Counted from the first letter of the stretch, positions 7,202-62,242 are shown. The stretch is 64,000 nt of DNA from Escherichia phage vB_EcoM_CUA3 (PP410321); one strand, 5' to 3'. Translations and numbers: made by a program. The notes: generated by a model not told the origin, from the letters alone.

Positions 7202-7705
7202 TTATCTCATTTCAATAAAATCTACGAGTTCAGCATGGGACTTGCGGAACATTACTTGGCGGTCACCAATGACTACCTCATCTTCAGGGATTTCGTAAAC
7301 AGCAAGGTAGAATCCTTTAGAAGATAATTCTTCGCGCTCTTCACGAGTGAACCAGCGCATCATATCATACTCGCTGGCAAAAGCAAAATGGTAGAGATTA
7401 ACAAACCAACCGGGNATATNNNNNNNNNNNNNNNNNNNNNNNNNNNNNNNNNNNNNNNNNNNNNNNNNNNNATTAGAATTTTTAACCAACAATTCATCTT
7501 GACTTGGTAGTGGGATGTTTTTATTATTAGTATGATGGTGTCTAAAATTAGGTCTGTCGAAACCCACTTCTAATAACCAACCTTCACTCCATTCATCAAA
7601 TGAGCCTCTATACGGGGTTAATTGGCGACATTGTTGACGAGTGATTGTGATAACATCGCTGTTATCTAAGATACTGAACGATGACTCAACTCGATAAATT
7701 TTCAT
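7202..7705 (-). CDS. hypothetical protein
   Basis: 167-aa ORF; ATG with GAGGAG SD; promoter cassette immediately upstream. Confidence 0.45.
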   Translation of the reverse strand: MKIYRVESSFSILDNSDVITITRQQCRQLTPYRGSFDEWSEGWLLEVGFDRPNFRHHHTNNKNIPLPSQDELLVKNSNXXXXXXXXXXXXXXXXXXXPGWFVNLYHFAFASEYDMMRWFTREEREELSSKGFYLAVYEIPEDEVVIGDRQVMFRKSHAELVDFIEMR

Positions 7706-7732
7706 TTTGTTCTCCTCATGTTGATAGGGTAG

Positions 7733-7761
7733 ATAATATCATGTCATGAGGAGAAGTAAAC
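7733..7761 (-). promoter_or_regulatory. early-type promoter with SD-complementary spacer
   Basis: minus-sense GTTTAC, 17 nt, TATTAT; spacer TCTCCTCATG is the exact reverse complement of 5'UTR CATGAGGAGA containing the SD. Confidence 0.6.
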
Positions 7762-11868: not shown

Positions 11869-12438
11869 CTAAAAATCCAACATTTTTAAATGAATTGTTT
11901 TGTACTCGATTTCGTATGGGTCCCTTTTGATAGTTTCGATTTCCACAATCTCGAACCGTGATAGACTGGAGACCATAAACTCACATTCAGTTTCAACCAT
12001 ATCATAAAGGTCTATGCGAGTTTCATCTATTTCAAGTTCATCTACGTTCCCTGCAAGAACAAGGTCAATAGCGTGGTTGTAGTAGTCGAAAATGAAGGGC
12101 GCATTCCTGAGACTTAAAATGGTTTTTGTTCCATATTCCCATGCCCCTGCAAACTGACGAGCCTGAGAGTATTGTGTACTAAAAGAAGTAACCCGGCCAG
12201 GAGACCACTGACACCCTACAGAAAGAACTTCAAGTTGCTCAAGTTCTCTGGGGGTAATCCCACGATAAAGCTCTACCGGAACCACTGAAGTAACATGCTT
12301 ACGAACCAGTTTGTCAAGGTCGTAATGGAAGTTAGGGTCTTTTTTGGCGTCCAGACATTTCTCTAACAATGCCTGTTCAGATTTTGAAAATTTGGAATTG
12401 ATTCGGTCTTGATAAAGACATTTTTGTTCGATGTTCAT
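11869..12438 (-). CDS. modA: ADP-ribosyltransferase (ModA-like, R-S-E class)
   Basis: 189-aa ORF; VTSVVPVELYRGIT and SFSTQ motifs; N-terminal half paralogous to 11200..11814. Confidence 0.65.
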   Translation of the reverse strand: MNIEQKCLYQDRINSKFSKSEQALLEKCLDAKKDPNFHYDLDKLVRKHVTSVVPVELYRGITPRELEQLEVLSVGCQWSPGRVTSFSTQYSQARQFAGAWEYGTKTILSLRNAPFIFDYYNHAIDLVLAGNVDELEIDETRIDLYDMVETECEFMVSSLSRFEIVEIETIKRDPYEIEYKTIHLKMLDF

Positions 12439-12462
12439 ATGACCTCCGGTGATTTAGAGGTC

Positions 12463-12490
12463 ATTATAACATGAAGGGAAGGGATGTAAA
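12463..12490 (-). promoter_or_regulatory. promoter with extended -10 upstream of modA-like gene
   Basis: minus-sense TTTACA, 16 nt, TGtTATAAT; downstream inverted repeat GACCTC/GAGGTC covers the GGAGG SD. Confidence 0.5.
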
Positions 12491-12493
12491 ACT

Positions 12494-14073: not shown

Positions 14074-14103
14074 ATCTTAACATGGTCTACTCGTAAAGTA
14101 AAC
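14074..14103 (-). promoter_or_regulatory. early-type promoter
   Basis: minus-sense GTTTAC, 18 nt, TGtTAAGAT; inverted repeat TAAGATA/TATCTTA overlaps the -10. Confidence 0.5.
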
Positions 14104-14137: not shown

Positions 14138-14724
14138 ATAATTAANCNNNNNNNNNNNNNNNNNNNNNNNNNNNNNNNNNNNNNNNNNNNNNNNNNNNNN
14201 NNNNNNNNNNNNNNNNNNNNNNNNNNNNNNNNNNNNNNNNNNNNNNNNNNNNNNNNNNNNNNNNNNNNNNNNNNNNNNNNNNNNNNNNNNNNNNNNNNNN
14301 NNNNNNNNNNNNNNNNNNNNNNNNNNNNNNNNNNNNNNNNNNNNNNNNNNNNNNNNNNNNNNNNNNNNNNNNNNNNNNNNNNNNNNNNNNNNNNNNNNNN
14401 NNNNNNNNNNNNNNNNNNNNNNNNNNNNNNNNNNNNNNNNNNNNNNNNNNNNNNNNNNNNNNNNNNNNNNNNNNNNNNNNNNNNNNNNNNNNNNNNNNNN
14501 NNNNNNNNNNNNNNNNNNNNNNNNNNNNNNNNNNNNNNNNNNNNNNNNNNNNNNNNNNNNNNNNNNNNNNNNNNNNNNNNNNNNNNNNNNNNNNNNNNNN
14601 NNNNNNNNNNNNNNNNNNNNNNNNNNNNNNNNNNNNNNNNNNNNNNNNNNNNNNNNNNNNNNNNNNNNNNNNNNNNNNNNNNNNNNNNNNNNNNNNNNNN
14701 NNNNNNNNNNNNNNNNNNNNNNNA

Positions 14725-18346: not shown

Positions 18347-18664
18347 TTAGATTTCCTCGCAGAAGGCCCATTCAGCATGATAAACCGTAGCGCCTTTAGT
18401 ATCATTTAAACAAACCACATCCACCGGAGCAATTACACGATAAAGACGAGGTTCTCCTCCCACTGAACGAGCAGCTCGTCCAGCATAAATCTTAGCCAAA
18501 CCGATGTCCTCAGTAAAGAATACACGATTCAGGTTTTTCTTACGACCAGTTTCAGACAGAACTCCTGTTTCCTCAGGAGGACAAAGCATATTACCAATAT
18601 TAGCAACACTACAACTTCCGTGATAATACACTTTATATTCTGCTTTACAGTCGATGGTTTCCAT
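18347..18664 (-). CDS. hypothetical protein with Arr-like ADP-ribosyltransferase signature
   Basis: about 105 aa from METID; YYHGSCSVANIGNML resembles the HGT motif region of rifampin ADP-ribosyltransferase Arr (H-Y-E class) as recalled; GGAGAA SD; no T4 counterpart at this position. Confidence 0.4.
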   Translation of the reverse strand: METIDCKAEYKVYYHGSCSVANIGNMLCPPEETGVLSETGRKKNLNRVFFTEDIGLAKIYAGRAARSVGGEPRLYRVIAPVDVVCLNDTKGATVYHAEWAFCEEI

Positions 18665-18688
18665 TTTATTCTCCAAGTTGATAGGTCT

Positions 18689-18717
18689 ATAATAACATAA
18701 CTAAAGGAGAAGTAAAC
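18689..18717 (-). promoter_or_regulatory. early-type promoter
   Basis: minus-sense GTTTAC, 17 nt, TGtTATTAT, then AGACCTATCAAC. Confidence 0.6.
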
Positions 18718-29834: not shown

Positions 29835-30054
29835 TGCTTAAATTTCCATNNNNNNNNNNNNNNNNNNNNNNNNNNNNNNNNNNNNNNNNNNNNNNNNNNN
29901 NNNNNNNNNNNNNNNNNNNNNNNNNNNNNNNNNNNNNNNNNNNNNNNNNNNNNNNNNNNNNNNNNNNNNNNNNNNNNNNNNNNNNNNNNNNNNNNNNNNN
30001 NNNNNNNNNNNNNNNNNNNNNNNNNNNNNNNNNNNNNNNNNNNNNNNNNTCATA

Positions 30055-37300: not shown

Positions 37301-37499
37301 ATTAATCCTTNNNNNNNNNNNNNNNNNNNNNNNNNNNNNNNNNNNNNNNNNNNNNNNNNNNNNNNNNNNNNNNNNNNNNNNNNNNNNNNNNNNNNNNNNN
37401 NNNNNNNNNNNNNNNNNNNNNNNNNNNNNNNNNNNNNNNNNNNNNNNNNNNNNNNNNNNNNNNNNNNNNNNNNNNNNNNNNNNNNNNNNNNNNNNNNNN

Positions 37500-38070
37500 N
37501 NNNNNNNNNNNNNNNNNNNTGAGTTCCATATAAAAAATCCAGTTCACCGACTTTAGGTTCGGCACTCTTATCAGACCCTGGTGCTTTAGTTAAAGAGGTT
37601 TCATACTGTGTCATTTTGTCGTAGATATCTTGGATAAAGGTTTCATCTGCAATACCTACCATGTCGTCATCATTACTGTCGTAGACATTATGGACGAAGT
37701 AGCTATATTTCTTTGCCATTTCTTTACGTTCTTTCTTGATACGCTGAACAAAGGCATTAAAACAAGCCATAGTGATATATGCATGTGGGTTGTCGTATTT
37801 TGTTTCGTCGAAGTTGTGAAGGCCTTTAATAGAAGCTTCGATTCCATCAGCAATCATTTCTTGCTTCCAGGATTGGGTATACCCGGAGAAGTTGAAACGC
37901 TTAGAAAGGCCTTCAGCAATGAGCATAATAGCCAAGCCGATAACATCGTTCTGACGAACTATTTTATTAGGGTCGGTATTTTCTCTGAGTTCCGTTTTCC
38001 ACTGGGTAATGGCTTTCAGAAGCTCCTTATTATTTACATAGTTATTTTTAGTCAGTTTAATTTCGGTCAT
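37500..38070 (-). CDS. 55: late-transcription sigma factor
   Basis: N-terminal 183 aa collinear with T4 gp55 ([17 protein letters not shown]); C-terminus falls in an N run, so the end is approximate; the track ORF runs on artificially to 37273. Confidence 0.8.
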
Positions 38071-39949: not shown

Positions 39950-40122
39950 AATTCAATTTCCTTGGCTATCGAACAAAATATGGCGCGGTCACAAATCATT
40001 TTAATATTAAGTTCAATTATGGTATACCACACGTCCAGGCTAGATATTTCAGTTACTAGAACAGCTTTGCCGTTGATTGAATAATACTGGTCGGCTTTAA
40101 TTTCTTTATCTTGGATAGTCAT
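39946..40122 (-). CDS. hypothetical small protein
   Basis: 58-aa ORF below the track cutoff; GAGGAG SD; ATGA coupling to the downstream gene; promoter cassette upstream. Confidence 0.4.
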   Translation of the reverse strand: MTIQDKEIKADQYYSINGKAVLVTEISSLDVWYTIIELNIKMICDRAIFCSIAKEIEL

Positions 40123-40151
40123 AATGTTCTCCTCATGTGTTGATAGGATAG

Positions 40152-40180
40152 ACTATACCACGTGAGGAGAGGAAGTAAAC
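40152..40180 (-). promoter_or_regulatory. early-type promoter with SD-complementary spacer
   Basis: minus-sense GTTTAC, 17 nt, TGgTATAGT; spacer TCTCCTCACGTG pairs with 5'UTR CACATGAGGAGA (11 of 12). Confidence 0.6.
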
Positions 40181-41604: not shown

Positions 41605-42377
41605 TANNNNNNNNNNNNNNNATAGAACGAACGGTGCAACCGTTTAAATTGACGAATCATCTTTTTGGTAGGACGGGTATACAACCCTATACAAGTGGCC
41701 ATAAACTGGTCAGTAGGACTTCCTTTGATAAGAAGTTTCCAGACCTTGTCACCGTTAAACTTTTCGGTATANNNNNNNNNNNNNNNNNNNNNNNNNNNNN
41801 NNNNNNNNNNNNNNNNNNNNNNNNNNNNNNNNNNNNNNNNNNNNNNNNNNNNNNNNNNNNNNNNNNNNNNNNNNNNNNNNNNNNNNNNNNNNNNNNNNNN
41901 NNNNNNNNNNNNNNNNNNNNNNNNNNNNNNNNNNNNNNNNNNNNNNNNNNNNNNNNNNNNNNNNNNNNNNNNNNNNNNNNNNNNNNNNNNNNNNNNNNNN
42001 NNNNNNNNNNNNNNNNNNNNNNNNNNNNNNNNNNNNNNNNNNNNNNNNNNNNNNNNNNNNNNNNNNNNNNNNNNNNNNNNNNNTTCATCAGAACGCCTTA
42101 TCAGCAAAGCGAAGTTGAGCTTCAAGCCAATGGATATAATCAGCTGCAGCNNNNNNNNNNNNNNNNNNNNNNNNNNNNNNNNNNNNNNNNNNNNNNNNNT
42201 CGTAAAGTGAATGTTCAATCAGACGGCCTTTATGTCGGCCAACTTCAATTTTGGTACTCATATCCAAACTCCATATCGATTAAATCATTGTTTGAAGGTT
42301 CATTATACTCTATTTCGGAATCGTTGTAAACCGGTTCCTCTGGCTCGGTAGTTTCCCACCGAGCGACATACCATGGC

Positions 42378-46547: not shown

Positions 46548-47072
46548 TTATGCGAGAACCGTCTTTAAACGCTCTTCAAATTTCTGAAGCAGAGCTTGGC
46601 GTTCAGCTCGTTGTGATTTGTACTGCTCGATACGACCTGAAGTGAGGGCGTACTGTTCGTTTACTGATTCCCGCATAAATTCAGGAATCTCTTTACAAGC
46701 TTTGATTTCGTCAAACTTATCAATAACCGCTTGTTCCTCGGCAATCAGATTATCGAAATAAGCGATATCCGATTTAACGTTTGCCAGGTCAGATTCAGTA
46801 GGCATTAAACGTTTGTTACGTTCAGCTTGATAAGCCTGGTTGGTTTCACGACTCCAGTGGAGAGTACGTTTTTTGTTAGTGTTTTTATAGAGCTCTACAA
46901 TACCAACTGAATCGATGATAGCAATCCAGTTCCAACGGCTTTTGTAAATCTCTCCTCCAGATACGGTAATCTCATTACCACAAGCAACGTCGTTAAAGAA
47001 CTTGCTTTGTTTTTCAGATTTGAAATTACCGTTGTTAAAATTAATCAGTGAAAAAATATCTTTAGCGTTCAT
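46548..47072 (-). CDS. hypothetical protein
   Basis: 174-aa ORF; promoter cassette upstream. Confidence 0.45.
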   Translation of the reverse strand: MNAKDIFSLINFNNGNFKSEKQSKFFNDVACGNEITVSGGEIYKSRWNWIAIIDSVGIVELYKNTNKKRTLHWSRETNQAYQAERNKRLMPTESDLANVKSDIAYFDNLIAEEQAVIDKFDEIKACKEIPEFMRESVNEQYALTSGRIEQYKSQRAERQALLQKFEERLKTVLA

Positions 47073-47098
47073 GATAACCTCCAGTAGTTGATAGGTCT

Positions 47099-47127
47099 AT
47101 AGTATCATTTCTACTGGAGATGTAAAC
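47099..47127 (-). promoter_or_regulatory. early-type promoter with SD-complementary spacer
   Basis: minus-sense GTTTAC, 17 nt, TGaTACTAT; spacer CTCCAGTAG pairs with 5'UTR CTACTGGAG. Confidence 0.6.
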
Positions 47128-47471
47128 TACTNNNNNNNNNNNNNNNNNNNNNNNNNNNNNNNNNNNNNNNNNNNNNNNNNNNNNNNTTTCCGTTGGTGTT
47201 TAATACGAATAAGGTATTCATTCCTGATGGCGCAGAGTTCATCTCTGAAGTCGCCTGCCAACTTAACCTGCTTACGGTCTAGATTTATTAAGGCCTGGGT
47301 CTTCGCGGCCAAGGCCAGTCTCTTGTAGTCTCCTTCTTCACAATCGGTTTTATAAACCTTCTCAGCGAATTGGTACTTAAATTCATTATCATAGTCTTCG
47401 ATAGACTGTTTCATGGCATTAGAGTATTTCAACTCTGCTTTTATAAGGTCGTAACTAAATTGTTCGAACAT
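47127..47471 (-). CDS. hypothetical protein (C-terminus masked)
   Basis: 114-aa ORF, ATG start. Confidence 0.4.
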   Translation of the reverse strand: MFEQFSYDLIKAELKYSNAMKQSIEDYDNEFKYQFAEKVYKTDCEEGDYKRLALAAKTQALINLDRKQVKLAGDFRDELCAIRNEYLIRIKHQRKXXXXXXXXXXXXXXXXXXX

Positions 47472-51469: not shown

Positions 51470-51920
51470 TATGCTTTCAACTCATTAAGATACTCAACCA
51501 AGGCTGCTTTAGAGTTAGCCAAATCCCGTTTACACTGCTCTATTCCGGAATACGAATAGCCTTCGCAATATTCAACAGCTAGGTCATTGGATGCGTTTTC
51601 AATGTGCTGGGCGAGTTTGATAATTTTCTCAATCTGTTCAGTAGTTAACATAANNNNNNNNNNNNNNNNNNNNNNNNNNNNNNNNNNNNNNNNNNNNNNN
51701 NNNNNNNNNNNNNNNNNNNNNNNNNNNNNNNNNNNNNNNNNNNNNNNNNNNNNNNNNNNNNNNNNNNNNNNNNNNNNNNNNNNNNNNNNNNNNNNNNNNN
51801 NNNNNNNNNNNNNNNNNNNNNNNNNNNNNNNNNNNNNNNNNNNNNNNNNNNNNNNNNNNNNNNNNNNNNNNNNNNNNNNNNNNNNNNNNNNNACTNTTCT
51901 CCTCATTAGTTGATAGGTCT

Positions 51921-51949
51921 ATAGTATCACGTTCCTAGAGGATGTAAAC
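51921..51949 (-). promoter_or_regulatory. early-type promoter
   Basis: minus-sense GTTTAC, 17 nt, TGaTACTAT, then AGACCTATCAACTAATGAGGAG. Confidence 0.6.
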
Positions 51950-55556: not shown

Positions 55557-56015
55557 TTAAAGATAGATTACTTTCGTGCTGGTTTTACCTTCTAAACGTT
55601 TAGAGTTAACAAATGCCATACGGCATTTTAATGAATATCCTTTATCAGGATGTTTACGGTCTACGGTCATACCCAACCATAAGGTTTTATCGGTAATCTC
55701 GAGACGCAGTGGTCGATACACTTTACCTGGGACAATTTCAGATTCTACATCAGGAAGAGGCTCCTGGATTAAAAATTCATGGATTTCTTTAACATGATTG
55801 TGGAGCTTCTTGAACAAAGAGAAAACATATTTTTCGTCAATTTCACGTTGGATAGCACGGTCCAACAGGTGATTAGAGTACTTAATAAAGAAAGCTGGGA
55901 CACCGCTCTTGACGGCGGCTTTTTTGATGGACGCGTTAAGTTCACGAAATTCGGTTTCGAACTGTCGACGTAATTTGTTGCGGCGGATGAATACTTCTGA
56001 ATTAATTTCTGACAT
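55557..56015 (-). CDS. regB: RegB sequence-specific endoribonuclease
   Basis: 152-aa ORF collinear with T4 RegB (EVFIRRNKLRR...HLLDRAIQREIDE). Confidence 0.8.
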   Translation of the reverse strand: MSEINSEVFIRRNKLRRQFETEFRELNASIKKAAVKSGVPAFFIKYSNHLLDRAIQREIDEKYVFSLFKKLHNHVKEIHEFLIQEPLPDVESEIVPGKVYRPLRLEITDKTLWLGMTVDRKHPDKGYSLKCRMAFVNSKRLEGKTSTKVIYL

Positions 56016-56043
56016 TTTGTAATCTCCTGTAGTTGATAGGTCT

Positions 56044-56072
56044 ATAGTACCACGCCTACAGGAGATGTAAAC
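56044..56072 (-). promoter_or_regulatory. early-type promoter with SD-complementary spacer (regB)
   Basis: minus-sense GTTTAC, 17 nt, TGgTACTAT; spacer ATCTCCTGTAGG pairs with 5'UTR CTACAGGAGAT. Confidence 0.6.
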
Positions 56073-57886: not shown

Positions 57887-58303
57887 TTAAGCGTAAATAG
57901 CCTTACCATAATGTTTGTACCAGGTAGGGCGTTGTGCAATTTTTTCATCCAAACGGGCTTGTGAAATAGCGATAGAAGCTTCGTGAGGAACATAATCACC
58001 ACGGAATTCCTGAGGAATGTCGCTAATATCCTGGACCGTAGTATCCTTGATATTAAAACCACGTTTTAAACATTCGGCTATAAGCTCAATTTGGCGTTTA
58101 CGTAAGAACTCTAGCTTATCGTAAAAGAACGTAACATGACCTGTGCCAAGGATAAAAGTAGGACTGATTTTGAAATCACGAACACGTTTACCATTAGCCA
58201 CATGCTTACGAACTGCACCGAAAACACGGGGTAATTCACGATATTCGGCCATAAGATGTTGGTCAGCCAATTCAGATACTAAGGTAAGGTTGATACGAGT
58301 CAT
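57887..58303 (-). CDS. denV: endonuclease V (pyrimidine-dimer DNA glycosylase/AP lyase)
   Basis: 138-aa ORF, near-collinear with T4 DenV ([26 protein letters not shown]...). Confidence 0.9.
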
Positions 58304-58305
58304 TT

Positions 58306-58758
58306 TTAATCTCCTGTAGTTGATAGGTTTATAGTATCATGCCTACAGGAGATGTAAACNNNNNNNNNNNNNNNNNNNNNNNNNNNNNNNNNNNNNNNNN
58401 NNNNNNNNNNNNNNNNNNNNNNNNNNNNNNNNNNNNNNNNNNNNNNNNNNNNNNNNNNNNNNNNNNNNNNNNNNNNNNNNNNNNNNNNNNNNNNNNNNNN
58501 NNNNNNNNNNNNNNNNNNNNNNNNNNNNNNNNNNNNNNNNNNNNNNNNNNNNNNNNNNNNNNNNNNNNNNNNNNNNNNNNNNNNNNNNNNNNNNNNNNNN
58601 NNNNNNNNNNNNNNNNNNNNNNNNNNNNNNNNNNNNNNNNNNNNNNNNNNNNNNNNNNNNNNNNNNNNNNNNNNNNNNNNNNNNNNNNNNNNNNNNNNNN
58701 NNNNNNNNNNNNNNNNNNNNNNNNNNNNNNNNNNNNNAAATTCATTGTAAGTTTTCAT
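58306..58758 (-). CDS. internal-protein-like gene (capsid-targeting N-terminus; body N-masked)
   Basis: starts MKTYNEF; the rest is masked; position between denV and lysozyme as T4 ipII/ipIII. Confidence 0.45.
58331..58359 (-). promoter_or_regulatory. early-type promoter with SD-complementary spacer (denV)
   Basis: minus-sense GTTTAC, 17 nt, TGaTACTAT; spacer ATCTCCTGTAGG pairs with 5'UTR CTACAGGAGAT. Confidence 0.6.
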
Positions 58759-59480
58759 NNNNNNNNNNNNNNNNNNNNNNNNNNNNNNNNNNNNNNNNNN
58801 NNNNNNNNNNNNNNNNNNNNNNNNNNNNNNNNNNNNNNNNNNNNNNNNNNNNNNNNNNNNNNNNNNNNNNNNNNNNNNNNNNNNNNNNNNNNNNNNNNNN
58901 NNNNNNNNNNNNNNNNNNNNNNNNNNNNNNNNNNNNNNNNNNNNNNNNNNNNNNNNNNNNNNNNNNNNNNNNNNNNNNNNNNNNNNNNNNNNNNNNNNNN
59001 NNNNNNNNNNNNNNNNNNNNNNNNNNNNNNNNNNNNNNNNNNNNNNNNNNNNNNNNNNNNNNNNNNNNNNNNNNNNNNNNNNNNNNNNNNNNNNNNNNNN
59101 NNNNNNNNNNNNNNNNNNNNNNNNNNNNNNNNNNNNNNNNNNNNNNNNNNNNNNNNNNNNNNNNNNNNNNNNNNNNNNNNNNNNNNNNNNNNNNNNNNNN
59201 NNNNNNNNNNNNNNNNNNNNNNNNNNNNNNNNNNNNNNNNNNNNNNNNNNNNNNNNNNNNNNNNNNNNNNNNNNNNNNNNNNNNNNNNNNNNNNNNNNNN
59301 NNNNNNNNNNNNNNNNNNNNNNNNNNNNNNNNNNNNNNNNNNNNNNNNNNNNNNNNNNNNNNNNNNNNNNNNNNNNNNNNNNNNNNNNNNNNNNNNNNNN
59401 NNNNNNNNNNNNNNNNNNNNNNNNNNNNNNNNNNNNNNNNNNNNNNNNNNNNNNNNNNNNNNAGGAGATGTAAACNNNTT

Positions 59481-59969: not shown

Positions 59970-60000
59970 AATTACCTCCTGAGTATAGGAGGTATTTATA

Positions 60001-62213: not shown

Positions 62214-62242
62214 ATAGTATCACACCTATAGACCTTGTACAC
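62214..62242 (-). promoter_or_regulatory. early-type promoter variant
   Basis: minus-sense GTGTAC, 17 nt, TGaTACTAT; perfect 9-bp inverted repeat GGTCTATAG/CTATAGACC around the -10. Confidence 0.5.

Follow-up and report, generated by a model that had tools for sequence, protein, structure and literature searches.

Early promoter cassettes of the window

The 64,000-nucleotide (nt) stretch of Escherichia phage vB_EcoM_CUA3 (PP410321) analysed here, hereafter the window, contains five intergenic cassettes of about 60 nt (gaps of 57-60 nt) in which the spacer of an early sigma-70 promoter is complementary to the segment that carries the Shine-Dalgarno sequence (SD) of the following gene. The downstream genes are motB.2, 55.6, nrdC.8, regB and denV, and the genes near all five cassettes lie on the minus strand. 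The window can be assigned to the Dhakavirus group, since a 2-kb probe around the site is 94.7% identical to dhaeg, CLB_P2 and JS10 (JS10/JS98-like), and it is colinear with JS10, with the same coordinates. Because the window holds 93 runs of N, JS10 (NC_012741; loci L001 and L002) was used as a gap-free guide and as the source of gene names.

Read along the minus strand, each cassette consists of a -35 box (GTTTAC), a 17-nt spacer, a -10 box (TAnnnT), about 11 nt, the arm with the SD, 4-6 nt and the ATG. The 5' arm begins about one base after the -35 box and is complementary to the part of the 5' untranslated region (5'UTR) that contains the GGAG of the SD, giving helices of 11-12 base pairs (bp), while the hairpin loop of 23-24 nt contains the -10 box and the predicted start site, which judged from the position of the -10 box would lie about 7 nt after it and about 5 nt before the 3' arm. 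The cassettes fill the entire intergenic gap, and the co-oriented upstream genes (dexA, nrdH, an open reading frame (ORF), vs.4 and an ORF) stop 0-5 nt before the -35 box; a hand count from the coordinates places the upstream stop codon 6-11 nt from the 5' arm, with no terminator between the two. The elements are as follows.

7756..7761, minus strand: -35 box of motB.2, GTTTAC; the dexA stop codon is 4 nt upstream
7745..7755, minus strand: 5' arm (anti-SD) of motB.2, TTCTCCTCATG, in the promoter spacer
7733..7738, minus strand: -10 box of motB.2, TATTAT, in the loop; predicted start about 7 nt downstream
7710..7720, minus strand: 3' arm of motB.2, CATGAGGAGAA, with the SD; ATG at 7703-7705
40159..40170, minus strand: 5' arm of 55.6, TCTCCTCACGTG, in the spacer; -35 box at 40175-40180, -10 box at 40152-40157
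40128..40139, minus strand: 3' arm of 55.6, CACATGAGGAGA, with the SD; ATG at 40120-40122
47111..47121, minus strand: 5' arm of nrdC.8, ATCTCCAGTAG, in the spacer; -35 box at 47122-47127, -10 box at 47099-47104
47077..47087, minus strand: 3' arm of nrdC.8, CTACTGGAGGT, with the SD; ATG at 47070-47072
56056..56066, minus strand: 5' arm of regB, ATCTCCTGTAG, in the spacer; -35 box at 56067-56072, -10 box at 56044-56049
56022..56032, minus strand: 3' arm of regB, CTACAGGAGAT, with the SD; ATG at 56013-56015
58343..58353, minus strand: 5' arm of denV, ATCTCCTGTAG, in the spacer; -35 box at 58354-58359, -10 box at 58331-58336
58309..58319, minus strand: 3' arm of denV, CTACAGGAGAT, with the SD; ATG at 58301-58303

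An earlier reading of this DNA, made from the sequence alone and hereafter called the sequence-only reading, had proposed that the spacers are reverse complements of the SD segments. All five sites that it cited are indeed present where its coordinates place them, and since the genes lie on the minus strand the words it quoted from the plus strand are the reverse complements of the RNA arms. The proposed relationship is exact for motB.2 (-35 at 7761; TTCTCCTCATG/CATGAGGAGAA, 11 bp, perfect) and for regB and denV (-35 at 56072 and 58359; ATCTCCTGTAG/CTACAGGAGAT, likewise 11 bp and perfect), apart from a twelfth base, G, that had been included in the latter two and is unpaired. It is inexact for 55.6 (-35 at 40180; TCTCCTCACGTG/CACATGAGGAGA), where 11 of 12 positions pair and one is a C.A mismatch, and for nrdC.8 (-35 at 47127), where CTCCAGTAG/CTACTGGAG pair over 9 bp and the extended arms ATCTCCAGTAG/CTACTGGAGGT reach 11 bp only when one G.U pair is counted. 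The five positions inside the CTCC/GGAG core occur in three versions in the window, TCATG/CATGA, TGTAG/CTACA and AGTAG/CTACT, so that complementarity is kept while its sequence varies, as that reading had held and as is seen many more times in the relatives described below. Its geometry is borne out as well, with the 5' arm upstream of the predicted start site and the SD within the 3' arm.

The regB (56013-56072) and denV (58301-58359) cassettes are about 93% identical over 59 nt, whereas the genes flanking them are unrelated. The denV gene of T4 carries the same cassette (ATCTCCTGTAG/CTACAGGAGA) as regB and denV of the window, and T4 regB a different one, which as a comparison of sequences points to whole promoter-SD cassettes having been transferred or gene-converted between loci and between genera. 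Within the loop (e.g. 7722-7742 and 58320-58340) a conserved TGATA of the extended -10 region can furthermore pair with TATCA to form an inner helix of 5 bp. The TATCA constitutes the first transcribed bases and is part of the conserved CCTATCAAC, and the inner helix may be one reason for the strong conservation of the CTATCAAC block after the -10 box.

Excess over chance and predicted accessibility of the SD

In 5 of the 19 evaluable early promoters of the window the spacer can form a Watson-Crick helix of 8 bp or more with the transcribed 5'UTR, against a mean of 0.073 in composition-preserving shuffles of the spacer, and none of 2000 such shuffles reached five promoters. For helices of at least 10 bp the numbers are 3 observed and 0.004 in the shuffles, and repeating the test on JS10 gave the same picture. 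Comparison with shuffled controls had been named in the sequence-only reading as a check on its proposal, and the outcome is clearly in its favour.

The predicted RNA folds of the five cassettes, taken from the -35 box to the ATG, have energies between -18.3 and -19.4 kcal/mol, and their z-scores relative to dinucleotide shuffles range from -3.6 to -6.7. Two kinds of transcript were then compared, namely a read-through RNA, including 60 nt of upstream context, and a promoter-initiated RNA, taken to start 7 nt after the -10 box. The probability that the GGAG of the SD is unpaired is 0.000-0.004 in the former and 0.2-0.8 in the latter, the value for promoter-initiated regB RNA varying with the length of coding sequence included; the folding check that had been suggested along with the proposal thus comes out as predicted.

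A similar contrast is seen when all 115 JS10 genes with a recognisable SD are considered, since the SD is unpaired with a probability below 0.02 in 6 of the 22 genes that have their own early promoter and in 5 of the 93 that do not; with a cut-off of 0.05 the counts are 6/22 and 7/93 (Fisher p = 0.017). The six early-promoter genes with an occluded SD are motB.2, 55.6, nrdC.8, regB, denV and modB, the last in a variant form described below. Among the genes without an early promoter the strongest match is gene e, which serves as a positive control, and its classical late-promoter hairpin is kept in the window (TATAAATA-CCTCCT...AGGAGG, 59970-60000, minus strand). No Rfam family matched anywhere in the window at the gathering threshold. 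A scan for intrinsic terminators finds true terminators upstream of the promoters at 14103 and 18717 and does not call the SD hairpins. An interpretation of the latter as intrinsic terminators was accordingly rejected, since their loops are 23-24 nt rather than 3-8 nt and they are followed by an A-rich tail, e.g. AUUAAAAAUG, with no T-run.

Conservation in other T4-like phages

Orthologous regions were collected from IMG/VR as loci encoding relatives of the five downstream proteins, and were thus chosen by protein homology with the motif ignored. This gave 67 distinct regions upstream of regB, denV, motB.2, nrdC.8 and 55.6 in diverse T4-like phages, 50 of which have an SD that is unpaired with a probability below 0.05 in read-through RNA. 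All 50 rise above 0.2 in promoter-initiated RNA, no region is occluded in the short form, and across the 67 regions the median is 0.001 in read-through and 0.577 in promoter-initiated RNA (Wilcoxon p = 5e-12). In composition-preserving shuffles 25 of the 67 regions reach p < 0.01, where 0.67 would be expected.

Representative pairings are listed below.

regB, locus L017: TTTCTCCTCTTTATG/CATAAAGAGGAGAAA, 15 bp
denV, locus L042: TTCTCCTGTAGATG/CATCTACAGGAGAA, 14 bp
denV, locus L029: ATCTCCGTTTG/CAAACGGAGAT, 11 bp
denV, locus L026: TTCCTCCAAG/CTTGGAGGAA, 10 bp
motB.2, locus L106: TCCTCGGTTAG/CTACTGAGGA, 10 bp with one G.U pair and one bulge
55.6, locus L124: TCTCCTTGTGTG/CACATGAGGAGA, 12 bp with two G.U pairs

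The comparison with T4 covers 56-68 kb of its genome (L126), where the regB promoter reads GTTTAC-TTTTCCTCTTGA...TTAAGAGGAGAA and forms 12 bp with two G.U pairs. In many denV orthologues the anti-SD is shifted to the -10 box and discriminator, as in TATGAT-GTCCTCC...GGAGGAC. Composition-preserving shuffles of this discriminator-type design permute no more than 6 nt and are therefore weak: helices of 7-12 bp give p of 0.02-0.15, and an 8-bp helix in L045 gives 0.31. The folding comparison was relied on there. Two features stay constant across genera, a 5' arm upstream of the predicted start site and a 3' arm over the SD; only the 5' arm moves.

IMG/VR was furthermore scanned with a pattern that specifies the core only, GTTTAC-N-TCTCC-N(28-40)-GGAGA, which gave 108 unique matches. 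In 51 of these the match lies in a promoter context, with a correctly spaced -10 box and an SD followed by an ATG, and the remaining 57 come from unrelated DNA, where the match is due to chance. An inward extension of the helix by at least 5 bp beyond the core is seen in 29 of the 51 promoter-context matches and in none of the 57 chance matches (Fisher p = 9e-13), the promoter-context matches containing 15 different inner-arm 5-mers. A gapless alignment of the 41 distinct promoter-context cassettes has a covariation score of 0.265, whereas shuffles give 0.108 +/- 0.013, none of 500 attaining that score, and slid registers score 0.04-0.09. Each inner pair shows 3-6 standard pair types in this alignment, and the base before TCTCC covaries with the base after GGAGA. 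As far as can be judged from sequence comparison, the notion that pairing is kept by changes on both sides, across paralogous as well as orthologous cassettes, is therefore supported.

Proposed promoter-in-hairpin gating and its alternatives

Each cassette can be regarded as a compact early-gene module in which a sigma-70 promoter and a ribosome-binding site would be encoded as the two arms of one hairpin. A polymerase arriving from the upstream gene would copy both arms, and the resulting stem of 11-12 bp, together with the small inner helix of the loop, would sequester the GGAG of the SD, so that read-through RNA would support little translation of the downstream gene; this stem would probably protect the GGAG from the nuclease RegB as well. 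Initiation at the cassette promoter, about 5 nt before the 3' arm, would instead yield a transcript that lacks the 5' arm and has its SD free. Translation of motB.2, 55.6, nrdC.8, regB, denV and, in the variant form, modB would in this way be tied to their own early promoters, and synthesis would stop when early promoters are shut off even while longer transcripts still cross the gene. [quoted passage not shown] Beyond the observed anatomy, statistical excess, predicted folds and covariation, we infer the position of the start site, the read-through and the effect on translation, read-through being expected because no terminator separates the 5' arm from the end of the co-oriented upstream gene, 6-11 nt away. 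With a probability of roughly 0.58, we hold promoter-in-hairpin gating to be the best explanation of the early cassettes.

An SD-masking hairpin with an internal promoter is experimentally established for T4 e, soc, 49 and I-TevI (PMC3014915, PMC2988022), and the sequence-only reading had suggested that the logic of e, soc and 49 applies here to many early genes. The layout does agree. In T4 e, soc, 49, I-TevI/II/III and segB and in Aeh1 mobE the SD, and sometimes the AUG, is likewise in the 3' arm of a stem formed in the long transcript, and a promoter in or next to the 5' arm gives a shorter RNA that lacks this arm and is translated. The timing, on the other hand, cannot match, since the promoter in every described case is a gp55 late promoter (TATAAATA) serving a late gene, whereas the window cassettes have an early sigma-70 promoter, serve early-region genes and hold the 5' arm in the spacer between -35 and -10 boxes or in the discriminator. 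As the internal promoter is an early one, it would be the early, promoter-proximal RNA that is translated, and the predicted effect is early-only, own-promoter-only translation rather than a delay to late times. The extent of "many early genes" also has to be narrowed to five strong cases and one variant (modB) among the approximately 22 early promoters of the window. All computable parts of the sequence-only reading are nevertheless supported, and its functional step is one that we, too, infer. The genes described as regulated by sequestration of the ribosome-binding site are all late (PMC2988022), and no early case is listed (PMC3014915). We found no description of an SD-spanning hairpin at an early promoter in the literature surveyed, an earlier mention in the older T4 literature being possible.

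Several points weigh against gating. The start sites are predicted from the -10 boxes and read-through is deduced from the absence of terminators, and since the upstream and internal promoters are both early, the advantage is harder to see than with late genes. Perfect inverted repeats can moreover be maintained by templated quasipalindrome correction, which does not require two selected mutations, and part of the apparent covariation reflects transfer of whole cassettes, such as the one shared by regB and denV and by T4 denV. The feature is present in only about a quarter of the early promoters of the window, and G.U and A.C oppositions inside the helices number 3 and 2, which gives no strand-specific RNA signature. 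Lastly, the window also has promoter hairpins that leave the SD free, hinting that cassette hairpins may have a more general role in attenuation or RNA stability, as proposed for promoter early stem-loop (PeSL) elements.

The PeSL cassettes of RB49/phi1, PST/T4 and nt-1/KVP40 resemble the window cassettes in being compact repeated intergenic modules with an upstream stop, a strong sigma-70-like promoter, an SD, an ATG and a stem-loop, and also in their association with variable small ORFs and cassette exchange, the window having about 22 such promoters and the near-identical regB and denV copies. Their stem-loops lie upstream of, within or just after the promoter, in five subclasses that all end before the start site, and have been read as terminators or attenuators, with the SD listed as a separate 3' element (PMC2839356, PMC4122927). 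The hairpins described here could be generic stem-loops of this type that attenuate upstream transcription or protect the 3' end of the upstream mRNA, overlapping the SD merely for want of space in 60 nt. We consider this rather unlikely, even though the RB49/phi1 stem-loops sit between the -35 box and -10 box or over the latter and one of them cut lacZ expression like a strong terminator (PMC2839356), and even though SD-independent hairpins are found in the window (at 62242, 17760, 5996, 6648 and 39059) and true terminators at some orthologous sites. Unlike PeSL stem-loops, the stems in question span the -10 box and the start site and have as their 3' arm the SD of the transcribed 5'UTR, and with their large loop and lack of a T-run they are not called by the terminator scan. 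Across genera it is furthermore only the 5' arm that varies in position, lying in the spacer or in the discriminator, the 3' arm keeping to the SD; in 50 of the 67 orthologous regions the SD is occluded in read-through RNA specifically, and a hairpin serving stability needs no 5' arm upstream of the start site. Intrinsic terminators at or just before early promoters (L046 and L120; 14103 and 18717 in the window) are found at this intergenic position too and would insulate the gene as well, yet they act on transcription and combine a GC stem with a short loop and a T-run, neither the tail nor the loop being found in the SD hairpins.

RegB cleaves the GGAG of early SDs and is blocked by secondary structure (PMC3014915, PMC1702504), and the hairpin might thus mainly shield internal GGAG sequences from RegB and the ensuing action of RNase G/E, so that long RNAs survive while the exposed promoter-proximal RNA is inactivated. 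The RegB sites of T4 early SDs likewise consist of GGAG followed by an A-rich tail; the motB.2 SD (GGAGAACAAAA) agrees with the strong-site consensus GGAGRAYARAA at 7/7 positions after GGAG and that of denV at 6/7, the 55.6 and regB sites fitting less well, and regB itself has the hairpin in Dhakavirus, T4 and other genera. A RegB site is a single-stranded motif, however, and what the window cassettes add is a complementary 5' arm that would hide the site in long RNA, its single-strandedness depending on the transcript isoform. Shielding is moreover compatible with masking of the SD, as one stem does both; the GGAG of T4 denV is a poorly cleaved RegB substrate, for which protection would be unneeded (PMC1702504), and the feature is also seen in T4-like contigs from the environment, which may or may not encode RegB. 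All in all it seems improbable that shielding is the main function. Another conceivable function is translational coupling, in which the ribosome finishing the upstream gene melts the stem and the downstream gene is translated from read-through RNA after all, in proportion to translation of the upstream gene. Stems that mask an SD until upstream ribosomes open them are a classical means of coupling, and upstream stop codons only 6-11 nt before the 5' arm would suit it. A ribosome at the stop codon, however, covers about 9-10 nt beyond it and so reaches only 0-4 bp of the 11-bp stem, and for coupling the hairpin need not enclose a promoter, nor need its 5' arm stay upstream of the start site, which makes this function quite improbable here. 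Still smaller is the probability that the inverted repeat acts at the DNA level only, whether by serving recombination or gene conversion, by forming a cruciform or by binding a protein. Recombination and mini-circle formation are known for PeSL cassettes (PMC2839356), the regB and denV cassettes share about 93% identity, with that of T4 denV the same, and both strands of the cassettes fold equally well, the G.U versus A.C count being uninformative in this respect. On the other hand, the arms lie 23-37 nt apart and would hardly form a cruciform, a single sequence-specific protein is hard to reconcile with at least 15 different arm sequences, homologous recombination needs similarity between cassettes and not an internal palindrome, and one arm is always the SD, which is meaningful only in sense RNA. 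The complementarity of a pyrimidine-rich spacer to a purine-rich SD might finally be put down to chance, since a preference for (A/T)TC just after the -35 box is common in these promoters and the anti-SD core could therefore in part be a promoter feature. This explanation has next to no probability, being refuted by the shuffle (0/2000), promoter-context (inner pairing in 29/51 against 0/57) and covariation (above all 500 shuffles) controls.

Variant cassettes and other promoter-associated hairpins

In addition to the five strong cases the window contains one variant and two weak ones.

12436..12491, minus strand: modB variant; anti-SD ATGACCTC at 12457-12464, pairing with GAGGTCAT at 12439-12446 over the SD
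51893..51949, minus strand: weak or partial case with the -35 at 51949; ATCCTCTAG against CTAATGAGGAG, 5+3 bp with a bulge
18662..18717, minus strand: weak case, TTCTCC/GGAGAA, 6 bp; -8.1 kcal/mol, z = -0.9; UUCG terminator just upstream

The modB anti-SD overlaps the end of the -10 box and the discriminator and is thus still upstream of the predicted start site, and the SD is unpaired with a probability of 0.004 in read-through and 0.38 in promoter-initiated RNA. In other T4-like genera this type of design is frequent upstream of denV. The cassette at 51949 has an intrinsic terminator just upstream and a 5'UTR that is partly masked by N, and a further cassette at 59475 is interrupted by N.

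The promoters with a UUCG terminator upstream (14103 and 18717) have no strong SD hairpin, and in JS10 none of the 5 terminator-preceded promoters has one, a number too small for significance. At orthologous sites that lack the SD hairpin, namely denV of L046, L050, L052 and L056, which are phage contigs of about 350 kb, and 55.6 of L120, a terminator overlaps the -35 box and the SD is free. Such a built-in terminator consists of a GC-rich hairpin and a T-run, e.g. GGGTTGAC-TTCG-GTCAGCCC-TTTTT. The replacement of hairpin by terminator fits a shared role in insulation from upstream transcription and is suggestive, the counts being small and the phages related.

The hairpins that leave the SD free form a second class, in which the spacer pairs with the -10 box or discriminator around a loop of 4-8 nt. 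They are found on the minus strand at promoters with the -35 at 62242 (AGGTCTATAG/CTATAGACCT), 17760, 5996 (ATAGGGTA/TACCCTAT), 6648 (AGAGCCAT/ATGGCTCT) and 39059, and fall at the positions of RB49-type PeSL stem-loops. SD-independent promoter hairpins of 14 bp also occur in T4 (L126), around the -10 box of ipII (TCCTAGAATTGTGA/TCACAATTCTAGGA) and at mobD.2 (AGTTGACAAGATTA/TAATCTTGTCAACT), and the ipIII promoter of JS10 has kept the 5' half, ATCTCCTAGAATTGTGA, and lost the 3' arm.

Many of the runs of N in the window (e.g. 58360-58737, 47132-47186, 14148-14723, 41772-42083, 37311-37519 and 29850-30049) correspond to entire small ORFs of JS10, among them the ORF upstream of denV, both soc copies, a-gt.5 and several hypothetical genes, and some start 0-4 nt from the -35 box of a cassette. 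This would fit a reference-guided assembly over replaced variable genes, with the cassettes as junctions, or deliberate masking.

Implications for T4-like phages

T4 is the reference system for phage gene regulation, and gating is directly testable there, at regB and denV. If real, it would provide a simple rule, translation from the gene's own promoter only, that covers a fair number of early genes, the tightly controlled nuclease RegB among them, and could explain in part why early protein synthesis is shut off abruptly. It would also explain how horizontally shuffled gene cassettes attain an expression level that is independent of their context, and the cassette would offer synthetic biology a natural part of 60 nt in which a promoter is coupled to a ribosome-binding site and insulated from read-through. 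More tentatively, and with the odds somewhat against it, the cassette may be a mobile, self-insulating unit widely used by T4-like phages, such that each shuffled gene is translated only from RNA of its own promoter. This would be an undescribed layer of early-gene control, found even at regB and denV of T4; it could account for the abrupt end of synthesis of some immediate-early proteins while longer transcripts still cross their genes, and internal RegB sites would be hidden in polycistronic RNA.

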